Below, one piece after another: positions 28,542-39,395 of a stretch of 64,000 bases of DNA. Made by a program: the position numbers and the translations under genes. Each line of letters opens with the position of its first letter. The first letter of the stretch is position 1. The stretch lies in contig CAWDPQ010000006.1 of the NCBI GenBank assembly GCA_963804245.1, positions 186,546 through 250,545 of the forward strand. Reading direction: 5' to 3'. The notes below the pieces were generated by a model. It saw only the letters and a list, made by a program, of their open reading frames with translations, was not told the origin of the DNA and searched no databases. Origin of the DNA: an uncultured Acidobacteriota bacterium. Its GTDB lineage: Bacteria > Acidobacteriota > Vicinamibacteria > Vicinamibacterales > 2-12-FULL-66-21.

Positions 28542-29872
28542 TCGAGACTCACGGCTGCCAGATGAACGTGCACGACTCCGAGCGCATGGCAGGGTTGCTC
28601 GAGCAGGCTGGCTACGAAGCGACTGCCGACGACCGCGACGCCGACGTCGTCGTCATCAACACGTGCAGCGTGCGGGAACGCGCCGAAGAAAAACTCTTCA
28701 CGCGTCTCGGTGAGCTTCGGCAGATGGGCATCGAGCAAGGCACGCGGCCGGTCGTCGCGGTGACGGGATGCGTCGCGCAGCAGGAAGGTGAGCGGCTGCT
28801 TCAGCGCTCGAAGGCCGTCGACGTCATCGTCGGCACCCAGAGCATGAAGCGACTGCCGATGCTCGTCGGCGCCGCGATTCAGTCCGCGGGGAAGCTCGGT
28901 CCGCAGCTCGATGTCGATCCGATGGGCGATGTCTCGTTTCCACTGGGGATCGCTCGCCGCTTCGATCCGGTGAAGGCCTACGTCACCATCATCGAAGGTT
29001 GCAACGAATTCTGCGCGTTCTGTGTCGTGCCGTACACGCGCGGTCACGAGCGCATGCGGCCGGCGGCGGACATCGTCGCCGAGGCGCGCTATGCCGTGGA
29101 CTCCGGCGCGCGCGAAATCCAGCTGCTCGGGCAGATCGTCAATCACTATCAGGCCCCCGACGACGCGGCCTGCGACTTCGCGGCGCTGCTCGAGCGTTTG
29201 CAGGCGATCGAAGGACTCGCGCGGATCCGATTCGCCAGTCCGCACCCGCGGCATGTCACTCCGCGGATGATCGCCGCCATGCGCGATCTGCCGAAGGTAT
29301 GCCGGCATCTGCATCTGCCCGTGCAATCGGGATCGACGCGCGTCCTCACCGCGATGCGGCGGCGGTACACGCGCGAGCACTACCTGGACCTCGTCGACCG
29401 TCTGCGCGCGGCCATGCCGGACATCGCCTTATCGACCGATATGATCGTCGGCTTCCCGGGGGAGACCGAAGCCGACTTCGACGAGACGCTGTCGCTGACG
29501 GCTGCTGTGGGCTACCACAGCATGTTCTCGTTCAAGTACTCGCCGCGGCCGAACACACTGGCGCTCAAACGGCTGCCAGACGACGTGAGCGAGGAGGAGA
29601 AGACGCGACGCATCGTGGCGCTGCAGACGCTGCAGCGTGAGATGCAGCACGGTCTCTATCGTGAGCACGTCGGCCGCATCGAGGAAGTCCTCGTCGACTC
29701 GCGGAGCCGGCGACGTGAATCGGAGCTCTCGGGACGGACCAGCGGCAACACGGTGGTCAATTTTCCGGGAGAGGCGGAGTGGTTGGGCAAACTGGTGCCG
29801 GTGCGCATCGTGGCGGCGAACCCGAACAGCCTGAAAGGCGAGGCGCTTGACAGCGACGGGGATGCCTCCTAG
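28523..29872 (+). CDS. miaB: tRNA methylthiotransferase MiaB
   Basis: GCQMN, NTCSVRE, CNEFCAFC radical-SAM motif, HLPVQSG, TRAM domain. Confidence 0.96.
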   Translation: MARKYLIETHGCQMNVHDSERMAGLLEQAGYEATADDRDADVVVINTCSVRERAEEKLFTRLGELRQMGIEQGTRPVVAVTGCVAQQEGERLLQRSKAVDVIVGTQSMKRLPMLVGAAIQSAGKLGPQLDVDPMGDVSFPLGIARRFDPVKAYVTIIEGCNEFCAFCVVPYTRGHERMRPAADIVAEARYAVDSGAREIQLLGQIVNHYQAPDDAACDFAALLERLQAIEGLARIRFASPHPRHVTPRMIAAMRDLPKVCRHLHLPVQSGSTRVLTAMRRRYTREHYLDLVDRLRAAMPDIALSTDMIVGFPGETEADFDETLSLTAAVGYHSMFSFKYSPRPNTLALKRLPDDVSEEEKTRRIVALQTLQREMQHGLYREHVGRIEEVLVDSRSRRRESELSGRTSGNTVVNFPGEAEWLGKLVPVRIVAANPNSLKGEALDSDGDAS

Positions 29873-29916
29873 CTTGGACGGGCGCCCGATTCGACGCTCG
29901 ATTGGGAGTTGACGTC

Positions 29917-30402
29917 ATGCAGATCGAGATGACCATCAAGGGGCTGATGATCGACCCCATCACGAACATGCCGATCGTGATCCTCCGTGACAAGGAGGGT
30001 CAGCGCGTGCTGCCGATCTGGGTGGGCGCGTTCGAAGCCAACGCCATCGCCCTGCAGATCGAGAACGTGACGACGCCGCGGCCGATGACGCACGATCTCC
30101 TGAAGAACGTGATCCACGACTTGAAAGCGGATATCCAGAAGATCGTCGTGTCCGATCTGAAGGAGAACACCTTCTACGCTCTGATCTACCTCCGCGTGAA
30201 CGGGGAAGCGGTCGCCGTGGATGCCCGCCCGAGCGACGCCATCGCCCTCGCCCTGAGGGCTCGCGCCCCCATCTTCGTCGAGGACAAAGTCATCGACCAC
30301 GCCCGCTCGGTTGACCTGGCGCCGGAGAAAGGGGACTCCGAACGGCTGCAGAAGTGGCTGGAGAACCTAGACCCGGACGACCTGGGCAAATACAAGATGT
30401 AG
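29917..30402 (+). CDS. Bifunctional nuclease family (DUF151)
   Basis: LPIWVGAFEA, RPMTHDL, DARPSDAIALALR. Confidence 0.93.
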   Translation: MQIEMTIKGLMIDPITNMPIVILRDKEGQRVLPIWVGAFEANAIALQIENVTTPRPMTHDLLKNVIHDLKADIQKIVVSDLKENTFYALIYLRVNGEAVAVDARPSDAIALALRARAPIFVEDKVIDHARSVDLAPEKGDSERLQKWLENLDPDDLGKYKM

Positions 30403-30516
30403 GGTACCCTCCGCGCAACCGCGCGAAATATCGGGCAATTTCGCAGATTTGATCAATTCCGTCATTTTGGCCCTACAATGGCGCCCAACCTACACCGCCG
30501 ATGCCTCGCGATCGCG

Positions 30517-30589
30517 AGGAGCGGAAGCGGGGCGTAGGGGCCCCGCGGAGCGACGCGCTAGGCGGGGTGCAGGAGTCCCCGCCATTCAA
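30517..30589 (+). repeat. REP-like element immediately before parA
   Basis: GCGGGG..GGGGCCCCGC and GGCGGGG..TCCCCGCC hairpins ending in CATTCAA. Confidence 0.65.
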
Positions 30590-30592
30590 TAG

Positions 30593-31348
30593 ATGATTGT
30601 CGCCATCGCAAATCAAAAAGGGGGAGTGGGGAAGACCACGACCGCCATAAACCTGGCAGCCGCCCTGTCCCTTCGCGGAACCCCCACGCTCCTCATCGAT
30701 CTCGATCCCCAGGCGAACAGTTCGATGTCGTATCTCGATGTCGCTTCGGTGTCGCGCAGCGTCTACGACGCGATCTCGGAACCGGACTGCGGCTTCGCCG
30801 ACATCATCGTCCCGTCGACGCAGGCGAACCTGTTCGTGGCGCCCTCGCGGATCGCCCTGGCGAAGCTCGAGTCCAAGCTGATAGGCGAGCTGGACGCGCA
30901 CTTCCGCTTGAAAGACCGACTGGAACCCGTGCGCGAGCAGTACCCGAACATCGTCATCGACTGCCCACCCACACTGGGCCTGTTGACGGTCAACGCCCTG
31001 GTGGCCGCGACGCACCTCCTGATACCCATTCAGTCGTCGTATTTCGCCCTCGAGGGAACCGACGACTTACTGGAAACGATCGAGAAGGTCCGGGCGCGGG
31101 CCAACCCCAGCCTCCGCATCCTGGGGGTCGTCATCACCATGCACGACAAGCGGACGGCGCTGGCGAGGGACATCCGCTCGCAGATCGACAAGGTGTTCGG
31201 CACGAAGGTGTTCAACACCGTCATCACCAAGAGCGTCCGGCTCGAGGAGAGCCCGGCTTACAAGGAATCGATTTTCGCATTTGCGCCGGAATCGAGCGGC
31301 GCCGCCGAGTACTACCGGCTGTGCGAGGAGGTCATGGATCGTGCCTAA
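30593..31348 (+). CDS. parA: ParA/Soj-family ATPase
   Basis: NQKGGVGKTTT, DLDPQAN, IDCPP. Confidence 0.95.
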   Translation: MIVAIANQKGGVGKTTTAINLAAALSLRGTPTLLIDLDPQANSSMSYLDVASVSRSVYDAISEPDCGFADIIVPSTQANLFVAPSRIALAKLESKLIGELDAHFRLKDRLEPVREQYPNIVIDCPPTLGLLTVNALVAATHLLIPIQSSYFALEGTDDLLETIEKVRARANPSLRILGVVITMHDKRTALARDIRSQIDKVFGTKVFNTVITKSVRLEESPAYKESIFAFAPESSGAAEYYRLCEEVMDRA

Positions 31349-32162
31349 GCGAGGTTTGCCGGAGACAGTACGGATGCGCCACGACGAGCACTACGTCGAG
31401 GCCCTTACCAGTTCTGCCGGCGCGCCGATCGGTCGAATGGTGCCCATCGATCAGATCGATCCAAATCCCAACCAACCCCGCCAGGTCATGGGCGACCTGT
31501 CGGAGCTGATGGCGTCAATTGCGGAAAAAGGGATCATCGAGCCCATCGTCGTCCGCCAGCGCGGGAGACGCTTTCAGATCGTCGCCGGCGAACGTCGTTA
31601 CCAGGCCGCGGTGCAGGTCGGCTTGCGCGAGATGCCGATTGTCATCCGCGAAGTGGACGACAACGAGATCATCGAGATCGCCCTCATCGAAAATCTTCAG
31701 CGGAAGGACTTGACGGCGTTCGAAGAATCCGAGGCCCTGCATTCACTGGCGAGCCGCTGCAGTTACACGCACGAGGATATGGCGCGCCGGCTAGGGAAGT
31801 CGCGAACGTCGATTACCGAGTCTCTGTCGTTGAACGGGATGCCGGAAGAGGTCAAAAACCTTTGTCGGCTGGCCGACATTCACTCCAAATCGTTGCTATT
31901 GCAGGTAGTTAGACAGGGAGACCACCAGAAAATGGTGGCTCTGGTCGAGAAAATCGCTCGCGAAGGGGGCGCCACGCGCGAAGCCCTTCGAAAAGAAACA
32001 GCCAAGCCCAAGGCCGGCCGCCCCAAGGCATTCATCTTCAGCTACAAGGCCCCCACCAAAGCATTCAAGCTGCAGCTCCGCTTCACGAAGTCACGCGTCG
32101 AGCGTGACGAGGTCATCTCCGCGCTCGAAGCCATCATTCAGGAACTACGAAACCAGAAGTAA
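31341..32162 (+). CDS. parB: ParB/Spo0J-family CTPase, atypical HTH
   Basis: PNPNQPR, GERRYQA, ENLQR, HTH GKSRTSITESL; GTG start overlaps parA. Confidence 0.93.
   Translation: MPKRGLPETVRMRHDEHYVEALTSSAGAPIGRMVPIDQIDPNPNQPRQVMGDLSELMASIAEKGIIEPIVVRQRGRRFQIVAGERRYQAAVQVGLREMPIVIREVDDNEIIEIALIENLQRKDLTAFEESEALHSLASRCSYTHEDMARRLGKSRTSITESLSLNGMPEEVKNLCRLADIHSKSLLLQVVRQGDHQKMVALVEKIAREGGATREALRKETAKPKAGRPKAFIFSYKAPTKAFKLQLRFTKSRVERDEVISALEAIIQELRNQK
31863..31878. other. Candidate non-canonical parS (16-bp palindrome)
   Basis: TGTCGGC-TG-GCCGACA inside parB; same length and TGT...ACA ends as parS. Confidence 0.45.
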
Positions 32163-32424
32163 GCCGCCCAGCCGCGAGCTGCCAGGCCCAGCCGCCAGCC
32201 CGGCTTCGGCCGGACTGCGCGAAAGTTCGACCCGCCGCGGGCCGCGGATCTCCATCCAAAAGGCAACACAGCCGAGATCCCTATGAACGCGTCAGAGAGA
32301 CTGGCGTGCGGATGACTTCGCAACCCGCCGGCGCCAGAAGGTGCGTAGCCAAACCGGAAGCTGAAGGCTGGGCGCTGGGCTGGAAGCTCGCGGCTGGAAG
32401 CTGGTAGCTGGCTGTTAGGAGCTG
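32162..32424. repeat. Inverted pair of GCTGG-heptamer arrays
   Basis: CCAGCCGCGAGCT (32168-32180) is the exact reverse complement of AGCTCGCGGCTGG (32385-32397). Confidence 0.7.
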
Positions 32425-32438
32425 CATTCTCGCCCCTT

Positions 32439-32466
32439 AGTTAACATAACACCCATTATCAGACCC
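32439..32466 (-). other. dif: dif site (XerC/XerD chromosome dimer resolution)
   Basis: Minus strand GGGTCTGATAA-TGGGTG-TTATGTTAACT versus E. coli GGTGCGCATAA-TGTATA-TTATGTTAAAT: XerD arm 10/11, XerC arm 7/11; intergenic. Confidence 0.88.
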
Positions 32467-32543
32467 ATGGGAAATGGCCAGAAAAAGCGGGCTGTTGAAG
32501 GATTGTGGACGCCCAGGCGGGGCTACCGCCCTAACCGCCGAAA

Positions 32544-32571
32544 GCTGGCAGCTCAGAGCTGGAAGCTGTTA
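32544..32571 (+). repeat. GCTGG-type heptamer array x4
   Basis: GCTGGCA GCTCAGA GCTGGAA GCTGTTA. Confidence 0.65.
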
Positions 32572-32582
32572 TCGTGAGTCCG

Positions 32583-34922
32583 ATGTTCCGAACGCTGGAC
32601 CGCTACGTGTGGCGCGAAATTCTGCCACCGATGCTCCTGGCGCTCCTTATCTTTACGTTTCTCCTGGCGCTGCCGCCGTTCATGCAGCATCTCGAGAACC
32701 TGCTGGCGAAGGGCGTCAGTTTCGGGACGATCGCCCGCCTGATCTGGACCTTGGTCCCGCAGGCTCTCGGACTGACCATTCCGATGGCCCTCCTCGTGGG
32801 CATCCTGATTGGCTTCGGCCGGCTGTCGGCCGACCGCGAATCGGTCGCCCTCCTGGCATGCGGGGTGAGCCCATACCGCCTGCTTCGCCCGGTCCTGGCG
32901 CTCGCCGTGGCCTGCGCGGCAGCGACGATGTACGTGATGATCATCGCCATCCCGCAGGCCAATCGCGCCTTCCTCGCCATCACGTTCGACATCATTTCCA
33001 AGCGGGTCGAAACGGACGTGCGCCCGCGCGTGTTCTTCGAGGATTTTCCCGGCTGGGTGCTCTATGCCGGCGACGAGGCGCCGCCAGGTGAGGCCGGCTG
33101 GCGGCGGCTGCTGGTCGCCGATTCGTCTCACGCCAACGCGACGGAGATCTACTTTGCCAATCGCGGCCGGTTGGTCATCGACCGGCACAAGCGAACGGTC
33201 GATCTCGTGCTGCACGATGGCGTGCGCTACACGACGGGCAAGCCGGGGCTGTCCGATACGCTGCGGTTCGAGGGCGACCTGCTGGTCGGTTTGAATCCCG
33301 AAGCGGTATTCCCGCAGGTCAGCATTCAAAAGGGTCCGAACGAACGGACCATCGCCGAGCTGCGCGCCGAAGCCGCGCGGAAGGCCCGCGAGGGGATTTC
33401 GCCGCACCCGGAAATCATCGCCCTGCAGCAGAAGTTTTCGTTCCCCGTGGCCTGTCTGGTCTTCGGCATCATCGGGCTGGCGCTCGGGATGACGGTGGCG
33501 CGCGACGGCAAGCTCGCCGGCTTCGTCGTCGGCGTGGTCGTGATCTTCGCGTACTACGTCGTGATGTTCATGGCGGAGTCACTCACCAAGGGGCAATACC
33601 TCAACGCGCATCTGTCGCGGTGGGTGCCTAACCTGATTCTCGGTGCGTTCGGTGTCGCGGCGCTCGTCTGGCGCGCCCGCGTCACGAGCGCCCGATTGCC
33701 GTTCACCATCCCCATTCGCTTCACTCGCGCAGGACGCGCGCTGCCCGACACGGATTCCAACGCGCCGGAGCCGTCAGCCGCTTCCACCCAATCCAAGCCG
33801 AAGGGCGTCGTCGTCGTCATCCGAATTCCCCGCTTCGCGGCGCCGTCGCCAAACCTGCTCGATCGATACGTGGCCCGGGCATACCTGCGGGTCGCCGCCA
33901 TCGCGTTCCTGGCCCTGCTCGGTCTGTTCTATATTTCCACCTTCCTGGACAAGTCGGACAAGATCTTCAAGGGTCAGGCTACGGCCTCCGCCGTCGGCGC
34001 GCTGCTCGTCTACATGACGCCGCAGTTCGTCTACTTCGTCATCCCGATCGCCGCGCTCCTGAGCGTCCTGGTGACGTTCGGCGCCTTGTCGCGAACGAGC
34101 GAGCTGACCGTCATGAAGGCGTGCGGGATCAGTCTGTACCGCGCGGCGCTCCCCGTCATCGTGCTCTCTTTGATCTTCAGCAGCGTCATCTTCGGCCTCG
34201 AACAGTGGCTGCTCGCCCGCGCCAACCGGCGGGCCGAGGTCCTCGACGCGCAGATTCGCGGACGGCCGCCGCGCATTTTCGACGCCTTGAATCGGCGCTG
34301 GGTCGTGTCGCGCGACGGCGACATCTATCATTTCAGGCTCTTCGATCCCGAACGGGACGAGCTCTCGGGTCTGACGATCTACACGCCGCGCACCGACGGC
34401 TGGCGGCTCGCCACGATGACCTACGCCGATCGCGCGCAGTATCGTCGCGGCTGGCAGGCGGCGTCTGGATGGGTGCAGAACTACACCTTCCAACCGCCGG
34501 TGTGGACCGCCTTCAAGGATCGCAAGCTGCCCGATCTCGAAGCGCCCGACTATTTCGAAACCGAGCAGCCGGTCGCCGAGATGATGACCGTCGGCCAGCT
34601 GCGGCGCTACGTGCAGGAGCTCTCGGCCAGCGGCCTGAATGTCGTGCCTCAGGCGGTGGAGCTTCATCGCAAGATGGCGTTTCCCTTCGTCACCTTCGTG
34701 ATGGCCCTGCTGGCGGTACCCTTCGGCGTGAGCATGGGTCGGCGCGGGACGCTCTATGGAATCGGAATCGGGATCGTGCTCGCCTTGTCCTACTGGATCG
34801 TCAGCAGCCTGTTCGTAGCGATCGGAAAAGGCGGGTTGCTGGCACCGGTACTCGCCGGGTGGGCGCCGAACATCATCGTGCTCGGCACCGCCTGCTATCT
34901 GTTCCTCACGGTCAAGACCTGA
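32583..34922 (+). CDS. Fused LptF-LptG permease
   Basis: Two tandem YjgP/Q units, each beginning LDRYV, with RLSADRE..AL.ACGVS and LSRTSELTVMKACGIS; both end W.PN. Confidence 0.9.
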   Translation: MFRTLDRYVWREILPPMLLALLIFTFLLALPPFMQHLENLLAKGVSFGTIARLIWTLVPQALGLTIPMALLVGILIGFGRLSADRESVALLACGVSPYRLLRPVLALAVACAAATMYVMIIAIPQANRAFLAITFDIISKRVETDVRPRVFFEDFPGWVLYAGDEAPPGEAGWRRLLVADSSHANATEIYFANRGRLVIDRHKRTVDLVLHDGVRYTTGKPGLSDTLRFEGDLLVGLNPEAVFPQVSIQKGPNERTIAELRAEAARKAREGISPHPEIIALQQKFSFPVACLVFGIIGLALGMTVARDGKLAGFVVGVVVIFAYYVVMFMAESLTKGQYLNAHLSRWVPNLILGAFGVAALVWRARVTSARLPFTIPIRFTRAGRALPDTDSNAPEPSAASTQSKPKGVVVVIRIPRFAAPSPNLLDRYVARAYLRVAAIAFLALLGLFYISTFLDKSDKIFKGQATASAVGALLVYMTPQFVYFVIPIAALLSVLVTFGALSRTSELTVMKACGISLYRAALPVIVLSLIFSSVIFGLEQWLLARANRRAEVLDAQIRGRPPRIFDALNRRWVVSRDGDIYHFRLFDPERDELSGLTIYTPRTDGWRLATMTYADRAQYRRGWQAASGWVQNYTFQPPVWTAFKDRKLPDLEAPDYFETEQPVAEMMTVGQLRRYVQELSASGLNVVPQAVELHRKMAFPFVTFVMALLAVPFGVSMGRRGTLYGIGIGIVLALSYWIVSSLFVAIGKGGLLAPVLAGWAPNIIVLGTACYLFLTVKT

Positions 34923-38436: not shown

Positions 38437-39315
38437 TCAGCGCCTCGGATGAAATCGATCGTACACGGTGCGCAGTCGTGCTTCGAGAACGTGTGTATAG
38501 ATCTGTGTAGTCGACAGATCCGCGTGTCCAAGCATCACCTGAATCGACCGCAGATCCGCCCCCCGCTCCAGCAGGTGCGTCGCGAAGGAGTGTCGGAGCA
38601 CGTGCGGGCTCAGCTCGCGCGTAATGCCCGCCCTGATGCCGTAGTCCTTCAGCACTTTCCAGAATCCCACCCGCGACAGCGGTCCACCATCGCGGGCGTT
38701 GACGAACAGCCACGTTGACGCGCGGTGCAAAAGTGCGCCGCGGCCCTGGGACATGTATCGGCGTACGCACTCGGCGGCTTCATTGCCGATTGGCACGATG
38801 CGCTCCTTGGATCCCTTCCCCACGCAGGTCAGGTAGCCCTCGTCGAGATGCAGGTTGTTCATCTTCAGCGACAGAAGCTCGGACACGCGCAGACCCGTCG
38901 CATACAACACCTCGATGAGCGCTTTGTCGCGCAGCCCGCGCGGAGTTGTCGCCTCGGGCTGAGCGAGGAGCCGATCGACTTCCTCGAGGCTGAGAAATTT
39001 CGGCAGCGCCGGCCACGCCCGCGGCGCGCGCAGATCGTCGGCCGGGCTGCCGTCGCGCTTGTCTTCGACGGCGGTGAACTTATAGAACCCGCGCACGCAG
39101 GCCACCGCTCGCGCGACCGACCGCGGGGACAGACCCGATGCCATCAGGCTGCGCACGAATGCCTCGAGGTCGCGACGCTCGAGCGTGTTCACGTCCACCC
39201 CGCGCTTCTCCGCGAACGTGGCCAGCGCTGCGAGGTCGCGCGCGTAGCCCGACACCGTATTCGGCGACATCCGCCGCACGTCGCGCAGGTAGATCAGATA
39301 GCGGTCAATTGTCAT
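38437..39315 (-). CDS. xerD: Tyrosine recombinase XerD
   Basis: LYATGLRVSEL, GKGSKER, HVLRHSFATH, QVMLGHADLSTTQIY; ATG at 39315. Confidence 0.92.
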   Translation of the reverse strand: MTIDRYLIYLRDVRRMSPNTVSGYARDLAALATFAEKRGVDVNTLERRDLEAFVRSLMASGLSPRSVARAVACVRGFYKFTAVEDKRDGSPADDLRAPRAWPALPKFLSLEEVDRLLAQPEATTPRGLRDKALIEVLYATGLRVSELLSLKMNNLHLDEGYLTCVGKGSKERIVPIGNEAAECVRRYMSQGRGALLHRASTWLFVNARDGGPLSRVGFWKVLKDYGIRAGITRELSPHVLRHSFATHLLERGADLRSIQVMLGHADLSTTQIYTHVLEARLRTVYDRFHPRR

Positions 39316-39329
39316 GTCACGATGTGGTT

Positions 39330-39395
39330 TCGTGGCTCGTGGCTCGTGGCTCGTTCGAAGTCTGCCACACCACGAGGCCCGAGCCACGAGCAACG
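39330..39395. repeat. Inverted heptamer arrays (TCGTGGC x3 ... CCACGAG-type x3)
   Basis: Read directly, upstream of xerD. Confidence 0.75.

Follow-up and report, generated by a model that had tools for sequence, protein, structure and literature searches.

A second ParA-ParB operon with a candidate centromere beside dif at the replication terminus of an Acidobacteriota chromosome

Chromosomal ParABS systems are regarded as origin machines. To our knowledge, the known organisers of the replication terminus (ter) are limited to a few lineages, and how the terminus is positioned and separated in most bacteria is an open question. Here we describe a locus in a 64,000-nucleotide stretch of DNA (hereafter the window, C6:186546-250545; positions without a contig label are window positions) from an uncultured soil bacterium of the order Vicinamibacterales (Acidobacteriota, a major soil phylum) whose assembly comprises 21 contigs, 5.82 Mb, with 64% G+C. 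In the window, a gene for a ParA-type ATPase, parA2 (30593-31348, plus strand), is followed by a gene for a ParB-family protein, parB2 (31341-32162, plus strand), and the stop codon of parB2 lies 277 bp before a dif-like XerC/XerD 28-mer (32439-32466, minus strand). In our judgement, ParA2, ParB2 and a candidate centromere, parS2 (31863-31878), probably constitute a second, complete ParABS system that is dedicated to the replication terminus, the canonical ParAB-parS system staying at oriC.

ParAB2 shares with the canonical Soj/Spo0J-parS system the protein families, the operon order and a 16-bp palindrome at the operon. The outer TGT...ACA of canonical parS is common to parS2, whereas the inner palindrome differs, as do the N-terminal peptide, the helix-turn-helix (HTH) and the C-terminal beta-beta-alpha region of ParB2. 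Canonical ParABS is found at oriC, whereas ParAB2 is found at the terminus by dif, with one to few sites near ter, and the two coexist in the same chromosome. MatP-matS and ZapT are analogous in role only, as sequence-specific markers of ter, and show no homology to ParB2; MatP and ZapT are not NTPase-driven and have no ParA partner, and MatP acts through many matS sites spread across a large macrodomain, in contrast to the 1-5 parS2 sites found here. Noc, a ParB paralogue with changed DNA specificity, is the top Foldseek match of ParB2 (7nfu) and, as TIGR04285, its highest-scoring NCBIfam family; however, ParB2 remains under the Noc cut-off (154.7 bits vs. 315), keeps a ParA partner and has only a few sites, which cluster at ter. 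Noc, by contrast, has many sites, and these are depleted there.

Two further systems resemble the locus in its arrangement. In multipartite genomes, replicon-specific systems such as ParAB2-parS2 of Vibrio cholerae chromosome 2 are likewise a second ParAB with its own centromere beside a canonical system, but they serve a separate replicon near the origin of that replicon, whereas here the ori and ter systems are on one chromosome. The par genes of the gonococcal genetic island likewise adjoin the chromosomal dif; that island, according to its description (PMC4207684), is strain-variable and mobile, with two flanking dif sites, whereas the parAB2 locus has one dif and no mobility genes, is flanked by housekeeping genes and has been inherited vertically across the phylum. 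Supplements aside, such as that of a ParB survey preprint (10.1101/2025.10.10.680097), which possibly lists the clade, the parts of the literature covered describe no ter- or dif-linked chromosomal ParABS and no parS2 palindrome; what we read as a terminus-specific variant of ParABS, whose candidate centromere is new and whose arrangement persists in much of the phylum, is apparently undescribed.

Position at the terminus and linkage to dif

Read on the minus strand, the 28-mer at 32439-32466 is GGGTCTGATAATGGGTGTTATGTTAACT, that is, GGGTCTGATAA-TGGGTG-TTATGTTAACT. When the 5.82-Mb assembly was searched with the loose core ATAA-N6-TTATGTTAA, it was the sole match without mismatches; 6 further matches each have 2. 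Among 144 sites (108 from Vicinamibacterales and 36 from other orders), the 6-bp centre varies between conserved arms. As a single 28-bp site that has 11-bp arms around this centre and is located at the terminus of a genome encoding XerD, the 28-mer has the features expected of dif, and we treat it as the putative dif of this chromosome. The xerD gene (38437-39360, minus strand) is about 6 kb from dif, and its product scores above the TIGR02225 cut-off (348.2 bits vs. 329.6). The preliminary description, made from the sequence alone, had placed the end of the operon at 32162, dif 277 bp further on and xerD about 6 kb away, and all three placements were correct.

A genome search identified ParB_N matches at C14:101143-101412 and at C6:217979-218245. 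The ParB on C14 is canonical, carrying MADKRPALGRGL, GKDRSSIANYVRLLRL and GHARA; it is preceded by ParA, and a single canonical-type parS, TGTTCCACGTGGAACA, was found beside its operon at C14:102645. DnaA is encoded at C14:110048-111343, about 9 kb from the canonical parB-parA, and we take the genes between them to be rsmG and mnmG, having named them by eye from their translations with no family search. The GC skew of C14 switches at 100-108 kb, beside dnaA, in the direction opposite to the switch on C6, where the best breakpoint is at 218,000, compared to 218,986 for dif, and runs from plus to minus (Mann-Whitney p = 0.0013). In 10 of 10 complete or near-complete chromosomes of relatives, parB2 lies at 0.47-0.56 of the chromosome from dnaA (four of the genome sizes were rounded for these fractions). 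ParAB2 is thus neither near oriC nor associated with a canonical parS, its own palindrome being different. A third ParB_N match in the same genome, at C12:549206-549439, is weak (35.4 bits) and falls within a 441-aa open frame.

These results bear directly on the preliminary description, which had suggested a terminus-linked partition system and had named, as outcomes that would speak against it, a locus near oriC and a sole parAB acting on canonical parS; neither outcome was observed. It had also asked where dnaA lies relative to the whole-genome skew: a skew breakpoint coincides with dif on C6, and dnaA, with the canonical parB-parA and its canonical-type parS, is found at the opposite switch on C14. 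Its remark that genes of the oriC type are lacking here agrees with the Pfam and NCBIfam matches of the neighbouring genes, none of which is of that type.

We identified a dif-like site 3' of parB2 in all 30 loci of a first set, in 79 of the 80 named related loci, the sole miss holding just 753 bp of downstream sequence, and in 105 of the 106 distinct Vicinamibacterales loci that remained after removal of 4 duplicate contigs. Outside Vicinamibacterales, 36 of 60 loci have such a site, and it is still present in 9 of the 10 loci from outside the order that lack the upstream miaB and BFN-domain (bifunctional nuclease, DUF151) genes. The far side of dif varies, with lptFG following directly or a GH57 gene coming first. 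In two genomes where parAB2 is about 38 kb from the dif candidate, a parS2 with 1 mismatch is located about 2 kb from that candidate. The association of parB2 with dif is far beyond chance, and the variable far side, the retention in other orders and the proximity of parS2 to a distant dif point to a specific tie between par and dif. The synteny comparison across Acidobacteriota that had been proposed at the outset shows that orthologues retain the linkage to dif or ter throughout the order, as well as in many families elsewhere in the phylum. The third adverse outcome named in the preliminary description, a lack of such linkage, is thereby contradicted as well, and all of its genomic predictions hold.

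The orientation of dif is not uniform. Among the 105 distinct dif-bearing Vicinamibacterales loci, dif is inverted relative to parB2, and still adjacent to it, in 10 (L047, L056, L066, L070, L071, L072, L092, L094, L095 and L100), 7 of which have an XerC arm with GTCGC, not GTCTG. On the XerC-arm side, away from parB2, about 60 bp of flanking sequence (32467-32530) is moderately conserved, appearing in the profile of the 108 Vicinamibacterales sites and not in the 36 sites from other orders; it could be a leader or promoter of lptFG or an accessory site. The spacer between parB2 and dif is not conserved in relatives, and a required site within it was ruled out because only 30-38 bp separate the two in a pair of relatives, while the longest spacer measures 1182 bp. 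From the spacer to the lptF start (32165-32571), this genome carries GCTGGAAGCTGG-type direct repeats, together with a 21-nt inverted repeat (32168-32188 and 32377-32397, 90% complementary), and has no Rfam match there; a search of the same genome for repeated perfect palindromes near dif returned none of note.

The candidate centromere parS2

Cross-locus counting of near-palindromes over all fetched loci singled out TGTCGGC-NN-GCCGACA. In the window this motif reads TGTCGGCTGGCCGACA (31863-31878), with 7-bp inverted arms and a 2-bp centre, and is situated inside parB2, at codons C175-I180; it occurs once in the 5.82-Mb genome at up to 1 mismatch. In 97 relatives that have the same peptide, the codons are TGT in 90, CGG in 92, CTG in 92, GCC in 85, GAC in 93 and ATT in 88. 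These codons are nearly fixed, and among them is TGT, a rare choice for cysteine where the genomic G+C content is 64%. With no more than 1 mismatch, the motif is present in 105 of 106 distinct loci of the order and in 48 of 60 loci of other orders, where it is found within parB2, upstream of parA2 or just 3' of parB2. The arms are invariant across loci and the central 2 nt vary, which fits a protein-binding DNA site and not an RNA hairpin or coding constraint.

The genomic distribution of the motif follows that of ParB2. In ten near-complete chromosomes, all 16 perfect copies were found within about 77 kb of parB2, and 14 of them within about 55 kb. Of the 301 sampled genomes of the phylum, 128 contain the perfect motif, compared to 8 that contain a reversed-pattern control. 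By a hand tally, in which kin are not independent although the pattern holds family by family, the perfect motif is present in 127 of the 173 ParB2-positive genomes and in 1 of the 128 ParB2-negative genomes. Frozen synonymous codons, a position that shifts across lineages and co-occurrence with ParB2 support parS2 as the putative centromere to which ParB2 would bind, and with it the operon appears to possess the palindromic site, at or near the par genes, of a complete ParABS. One perfect site, G099:C148:2885-2900, was found in a genome (96% complete) with no ParB match at E up to 1e-30, which may reflect an assembly gap or an orphan site.

The same palindrome was flagged, together with a T-rich run, as a possible terminator on the minus strand. 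This candidate was rejected, as the scan found 2 such elements vs. 2.0 expected in shuffled sequences and because the motif also shifts position across lineages. The flag, along with the synteny of the whole block within the order, is what could be said for an ordinary conserved gene order, with par and dif functionally untied and the palindrome serving parB2 at the coding or RNA level. However, the palindrome keeps the sequence of its arms, beyond mere pairing, and moves to intergenic DNA in other lineages; the linkage to dif survives both changed upstream genes (9 of 10 loci) and a changed downstream gene; and in the ten genomes perfect parS2 is found only near ter. The mobility of parS2, its location at ter only and the co-occurrence data largely refute this explanation, to which we give almost no credence.

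In most lineages, parS2 is located 0.1-3 kb from dif, the median distance being 552 bp in 107 loci and 609 bp in 31 loci, with a maximum of 2.9 kb. This proximity, which holds wherever both sites were found, could also be expected if ParB2-parS2 chiefly regulated events at dif, either as clamps that spread over dif and gate dimer resolution by XerCD/FtsK or by loading, stalling or unloading, at the terminus, complexes of the structural maintenance of chromosomes (SMC) type, with ParA2 only tuning the turnover of ParB2. The invariable location of dif on the 3' side of parB2, and the two genomes in which a 1-mismatch parS2 stays about 2 kb from dif while parAB2 is about 38 kb away, are likewise consistent with such a role. 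We nevertheless consider it unlikely: a full ParA with intact ATPase motifs is kept (78/80 and 59/60 loci), as a motor system needs; dif is 23-73 kb away in several families; and in some genomes several parS2 sites spread over 80-130 kb, like a centromere cluster and unlike a dif-specific operator. Thus, one genome has 5 perfect sites over 130 kb around parB2, and some genomes, G142 (C1:875554-1005017) and G188 (C1:1260076-1340758), show 4-5 perfect sites over 80-130 kb around parB2; these multi-site spreads resemble the canonical parS clusters around origins.

The two proteins, their descent and their neighbours

ParA2 is a 251-aa protein with Pfam matches to AAA_31 (1e-53) and CbiA (7e-27). 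It contains the deviant Walker A motif KGGVGKT, shares 40% identity with the ParA encoded near the origin of this genome and retains VRLEESP at the position of the DNA-binding arginine of Soj. Of the 80 related loci, 78 have parA2 ahead of parB2, as do 59 of the 60 from other orders. The listed reading frame of parB2 opens at TTG 31281; the likelier start is GTG 31341, which overlaps the stop of parA2 by 8 nt, as in one operon with ParA encoded directly upstream, and yields the N-terminus (M)PKRGLPE, in register from residue 1 with relatives that open with MSKRGLP.

ParB2, a 273-aa protein of the ParB CTPase fold with a variant N-terminus, a variant HTH and a distinct C-terminus, matches Pfam ParB_N (6.7e-29) and HTH_ParB (4.1e-13) and belongs to the ParB/Spo0J family TIGR00180 (142.7 bits vs. 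a cut-off of 58.45). It carries GERRYQA and ENLQR, as well as GKSRTSITESLSL in the HTH, in agreement with the preliminary description, which had noted the conserved GERRxxA and ENLQR motifs and an atypical HTH. The boxes NPNQPR, GERRYQA and ENLQR are invariant in an alignment of 12 orthologues, and ParB boxes I-III are at least 90% conserved in 61 phylum-wide ParB2 sequences. The same description held that both GHARAL and a full LGRGL peptide were missing. The GHARA segment is indeed not present in the ParB2 translation; for the N-terminus, 'missing' was slightly too strong, as ParB2 has a variant (K/R)RGLP peptide, here K-R-G-L-P, in which the arginine is invariant and the first glycine of the canonical motif is absent; an invariant MRHDxH(F/Y)VE comes after it. 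Across the phylum, the signature of ParB2 consists of RGLP-x4-MRHDxH(F/Y)VE and the three ParB boxes.

Compared to the canonical ParB of the same genome (ParB1), ParB2 is 40% identical over 162 aa only, the sequence of the recognition helix differs and the C-termini are unrelated in sequence. The best PDB profile match is Spo0J (1vz0, 7e-42), in an alignment that runs through the HTH, and the top Foldseek matches are Noc (7nfu) and ParB (6t1f); solved structures match only the N-terminal and HTH parts. AlphaFold2 models residues 231-271 as strand-strand-helix with a predicted local distance difference test score of about 80, so that in the model the N-terminal and HTH part is ParB/Noc-like and the C-terminal strand-strand-helix is separate. 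A two-copy complex prediction for residues 222-273 scored 0.41 vs. a mark of 0.42 and was not used either way.

The likeness to Noc as the closest solved fold, a weak match of ParA2 to the MipZ family (Pfam MipZ, 9.1e-11) and the consistent location at ter in ten chromosomes could indicate that ParA2 and ParB2 mark ter for the division machinery, ParA2 being a MipZ/PomZ-like spatial regulator that ParB2 tethers to ter and that promotes or blocks Z-ring assembly over the terminus and moves no DNA. This seems to us quite improbable, given that the MipZ match is far weaker than that to AAA_31, that the score for the Noc family is less than half of its cut-off, that parS2 sites number 1 to 5 per genome with no chromosome-wide array, and that no divisome gene is linked to the operon within the window.

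ParB2 was found in 173 of the 301 sampled genomes of the phylum, and the operon is conserved in 17 sampled families of the order and in many other families. Comparison of the two ParBs shows that the identity of ParB2 to its orthologues exceeds that of ParB1 in 31 of 31 genomes and that, for 248 of 253 genome pairs, the two ParB2 sequences are more alike than the two ParB1 sequences; the ParB1 and ParB2 distances correlate (r = 0.85), with a ParB2 rate of about 0.72 times that of ParB1. ParB2 is therefore more conserved than the canonical ParB, vertically inherited and strongly constrained phylum-wide. No close plasmid relative of ParB2 was identified, the best plasmid ParB being 44% identical, and all that a large protein search yielded was close kin annotated generically as ParB. 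A protein atlas gave matching clusters from Acidobacteriota only, which does not by itself establish that the system is restricted to the phylum. Family scans of the window identified no integrase, relaxase or replication gene in the housekeeping flanks.

A domesticated relic of a plasmid, a secondary replicon or a Xer-exploiting island, integrated at dif and now with a role that is minor or unrelated to the terminus, has a precedent in the gonococcal genetic island, where parA-parB stand at the island border at dif, with difA and difB flanking the island (PMC4207684). Integration at dif would put par beside dif without selection for position, and many of the phylum's families lack the system. 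Such a history would, however, account for origin and not for retention, and we hold it to be very unlikely: a single dif-like site was found in the genome, and the operon has no second one on its opposite side; the flanking genes are of the housekeeping kind and include none of the mobility or replication genes mentioned above; plasmid ParBs reach 44% identity at most; the evolution of ParB2 is slower than that of the canonical ParB and runs parallel to it; and parS2 sites are maintained and multiplied around ter. With one dif, housekeeping flanks, broad conservation and no close plasmid relative, the locus matches the description of neither an island of the gonococcal type nor an integrated plasmid. 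The earlier judgement that it is not a recent plasmid insertion fits the housekeeping flanks and the vertical, strongly constrained inheritance.

The neighbours of the operon, as identified by Pfam and NCBIfam, are recN, miaB, the BFN-domain gene and a fused lptF-lptG. The BFN-domain gene (29902-30402, plus strand; Pfam BFN_dom, 1.1e-42) lies directly 5' of parA2, a position that it holds in 78 of 80 related loci and in 50 of 60 from other orders; given this conservation, it may act together with the operon and not simply adjoin it. lptF and lptG form a single 782-aa reading frame (32574-34922), in which both NCBIfam equivalogs pass their cut-offs, one per half; the fusion recurs 3' of dif in relatives. 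When 17 family-level relatives are aligned, non-coding conservation upstream of parA2 is confined to two blocks, a -35-like TTGACAC and a -10-like TACAATG. The corresponding element in this genome (30449-30479, plus strand; TTGATC, 19 nt, TACAAT) may serve as a promoter, although, with its 19-nt spacer, it was not flagged by a strict promoter consensus scan. An operator upstream of parA2 was considered and rejected, there being no palindrome and no conserved block other than the promoter-like ones. Nothing in 29800-33000 matched Rfam at E values up to 1. Contigs of 3 RNA libraries from 3 studies (X7, X16 and X17) contain stretches nearly identical to parA2 and parB2, for example a 262-nt metatranscriptome piece that matches 31448-31709 with 2 differences; we count these as presence in the libraries and not as expression.

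Proposed function and its meaning

Under the reading that we favour, a ParABS system dedicated to the terminus, the par-dif linkage and the candidate centromere suggest that ParAB2 would position or organise the terminus. Dimers of ParB2 would load at parS2 as CTP-dependent clamps and then spread over neighbouring DNA, and, at a median parS2-dif distance of about 550 bp, the spreading protein could reach dif. The conserved N-terminal RGLP...MRHDxH(F/Y)VE peptide of ParB2 would stimulate nucleoid-bound ParA2, whose gradient would hold a single terminus complex at mid-nucleoid, as for a low-copy plasmid. Once the terminus has been replicated, ParA2 would move the sister termini apart, and such positioning may put dif where FtsK and XerCD act and so aid the last step of segregation. 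The binding of ParB2 to parS2, the clamping and spreading over dif, the positioning by ParA2 and the link to Xer, FtsK and division are all steps that we infer. The picture in full, in which Acidobacteriota use one ParABS for the origin and another for the terminus, with ParB2 spreading over dif and ParA2 first centring and then splitting the sister termini, is advanced tentatively, as one that may be right but falls somewhat short of probable.

Several observations weigh against a dedicated terminus system. The amplitude of the GC skew is small, and an 8-mer polarity search on C6 for motifs like the FtsK orienting polar sequences (KOPS) identified no convincing motif. Of the 301 sampled genomes, 128, whole families included, have the canonical ParB only, as do two members of the window's own family whose genomes are 98% and 81% complete, and a third genome of that family contains a parB2 homologue with in-frame stops (G011:C10:1460495-1461294; 2 TGA and 1 TAG, 51-56% identity), which looks like a decaying copy. 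The canonical-only relatives and the stop-bearing parB2 indicate that ParAB2 is dispensable in some lineages. Of the 173 ParB2-positive genomes, 46 have no perfect parS2, and a variant palindrome, sought in 12 ParB2 loci of other orders that have no parS2, was not found. Within 5 kb, 24 of the 60 loci from other orders have no dif-like site by the strict pattern, and, in the genomes checked where dif is not adjacent, the dif-like sites are 23-73 kb from parAB2; immediate adjacency to dif is thus not obligatory. Finally, the block recN-miaB-BFN-parA2-parB2-dif-lptFG is wholly syntenic within the order, and, as kin are not independent, the raw linkage counts partly reflect shared ancestry.

ParAB2 makes the question of how the terminus is handled experimentally concrete, with one protein, one 16-bp site and one locus. 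ParB2 and parS2 would represent a natural orthogonal ParB/parS pair for DNA labelling, and the location of parS2 within parB2 illustrates that parS-type sites can hide inside genes and be recognised there by their frozen synonymous codons. If the proposed function is correct, terminus positioning, dimer resolution by XerCD/FtsK and cell division would be directly coupled in these bacteria, and ParAB2-parS2 would be the first 'terminus centromere' driven by ATP and CTP, a way of handling ter outside the enterobacteria that does not involve MatP.

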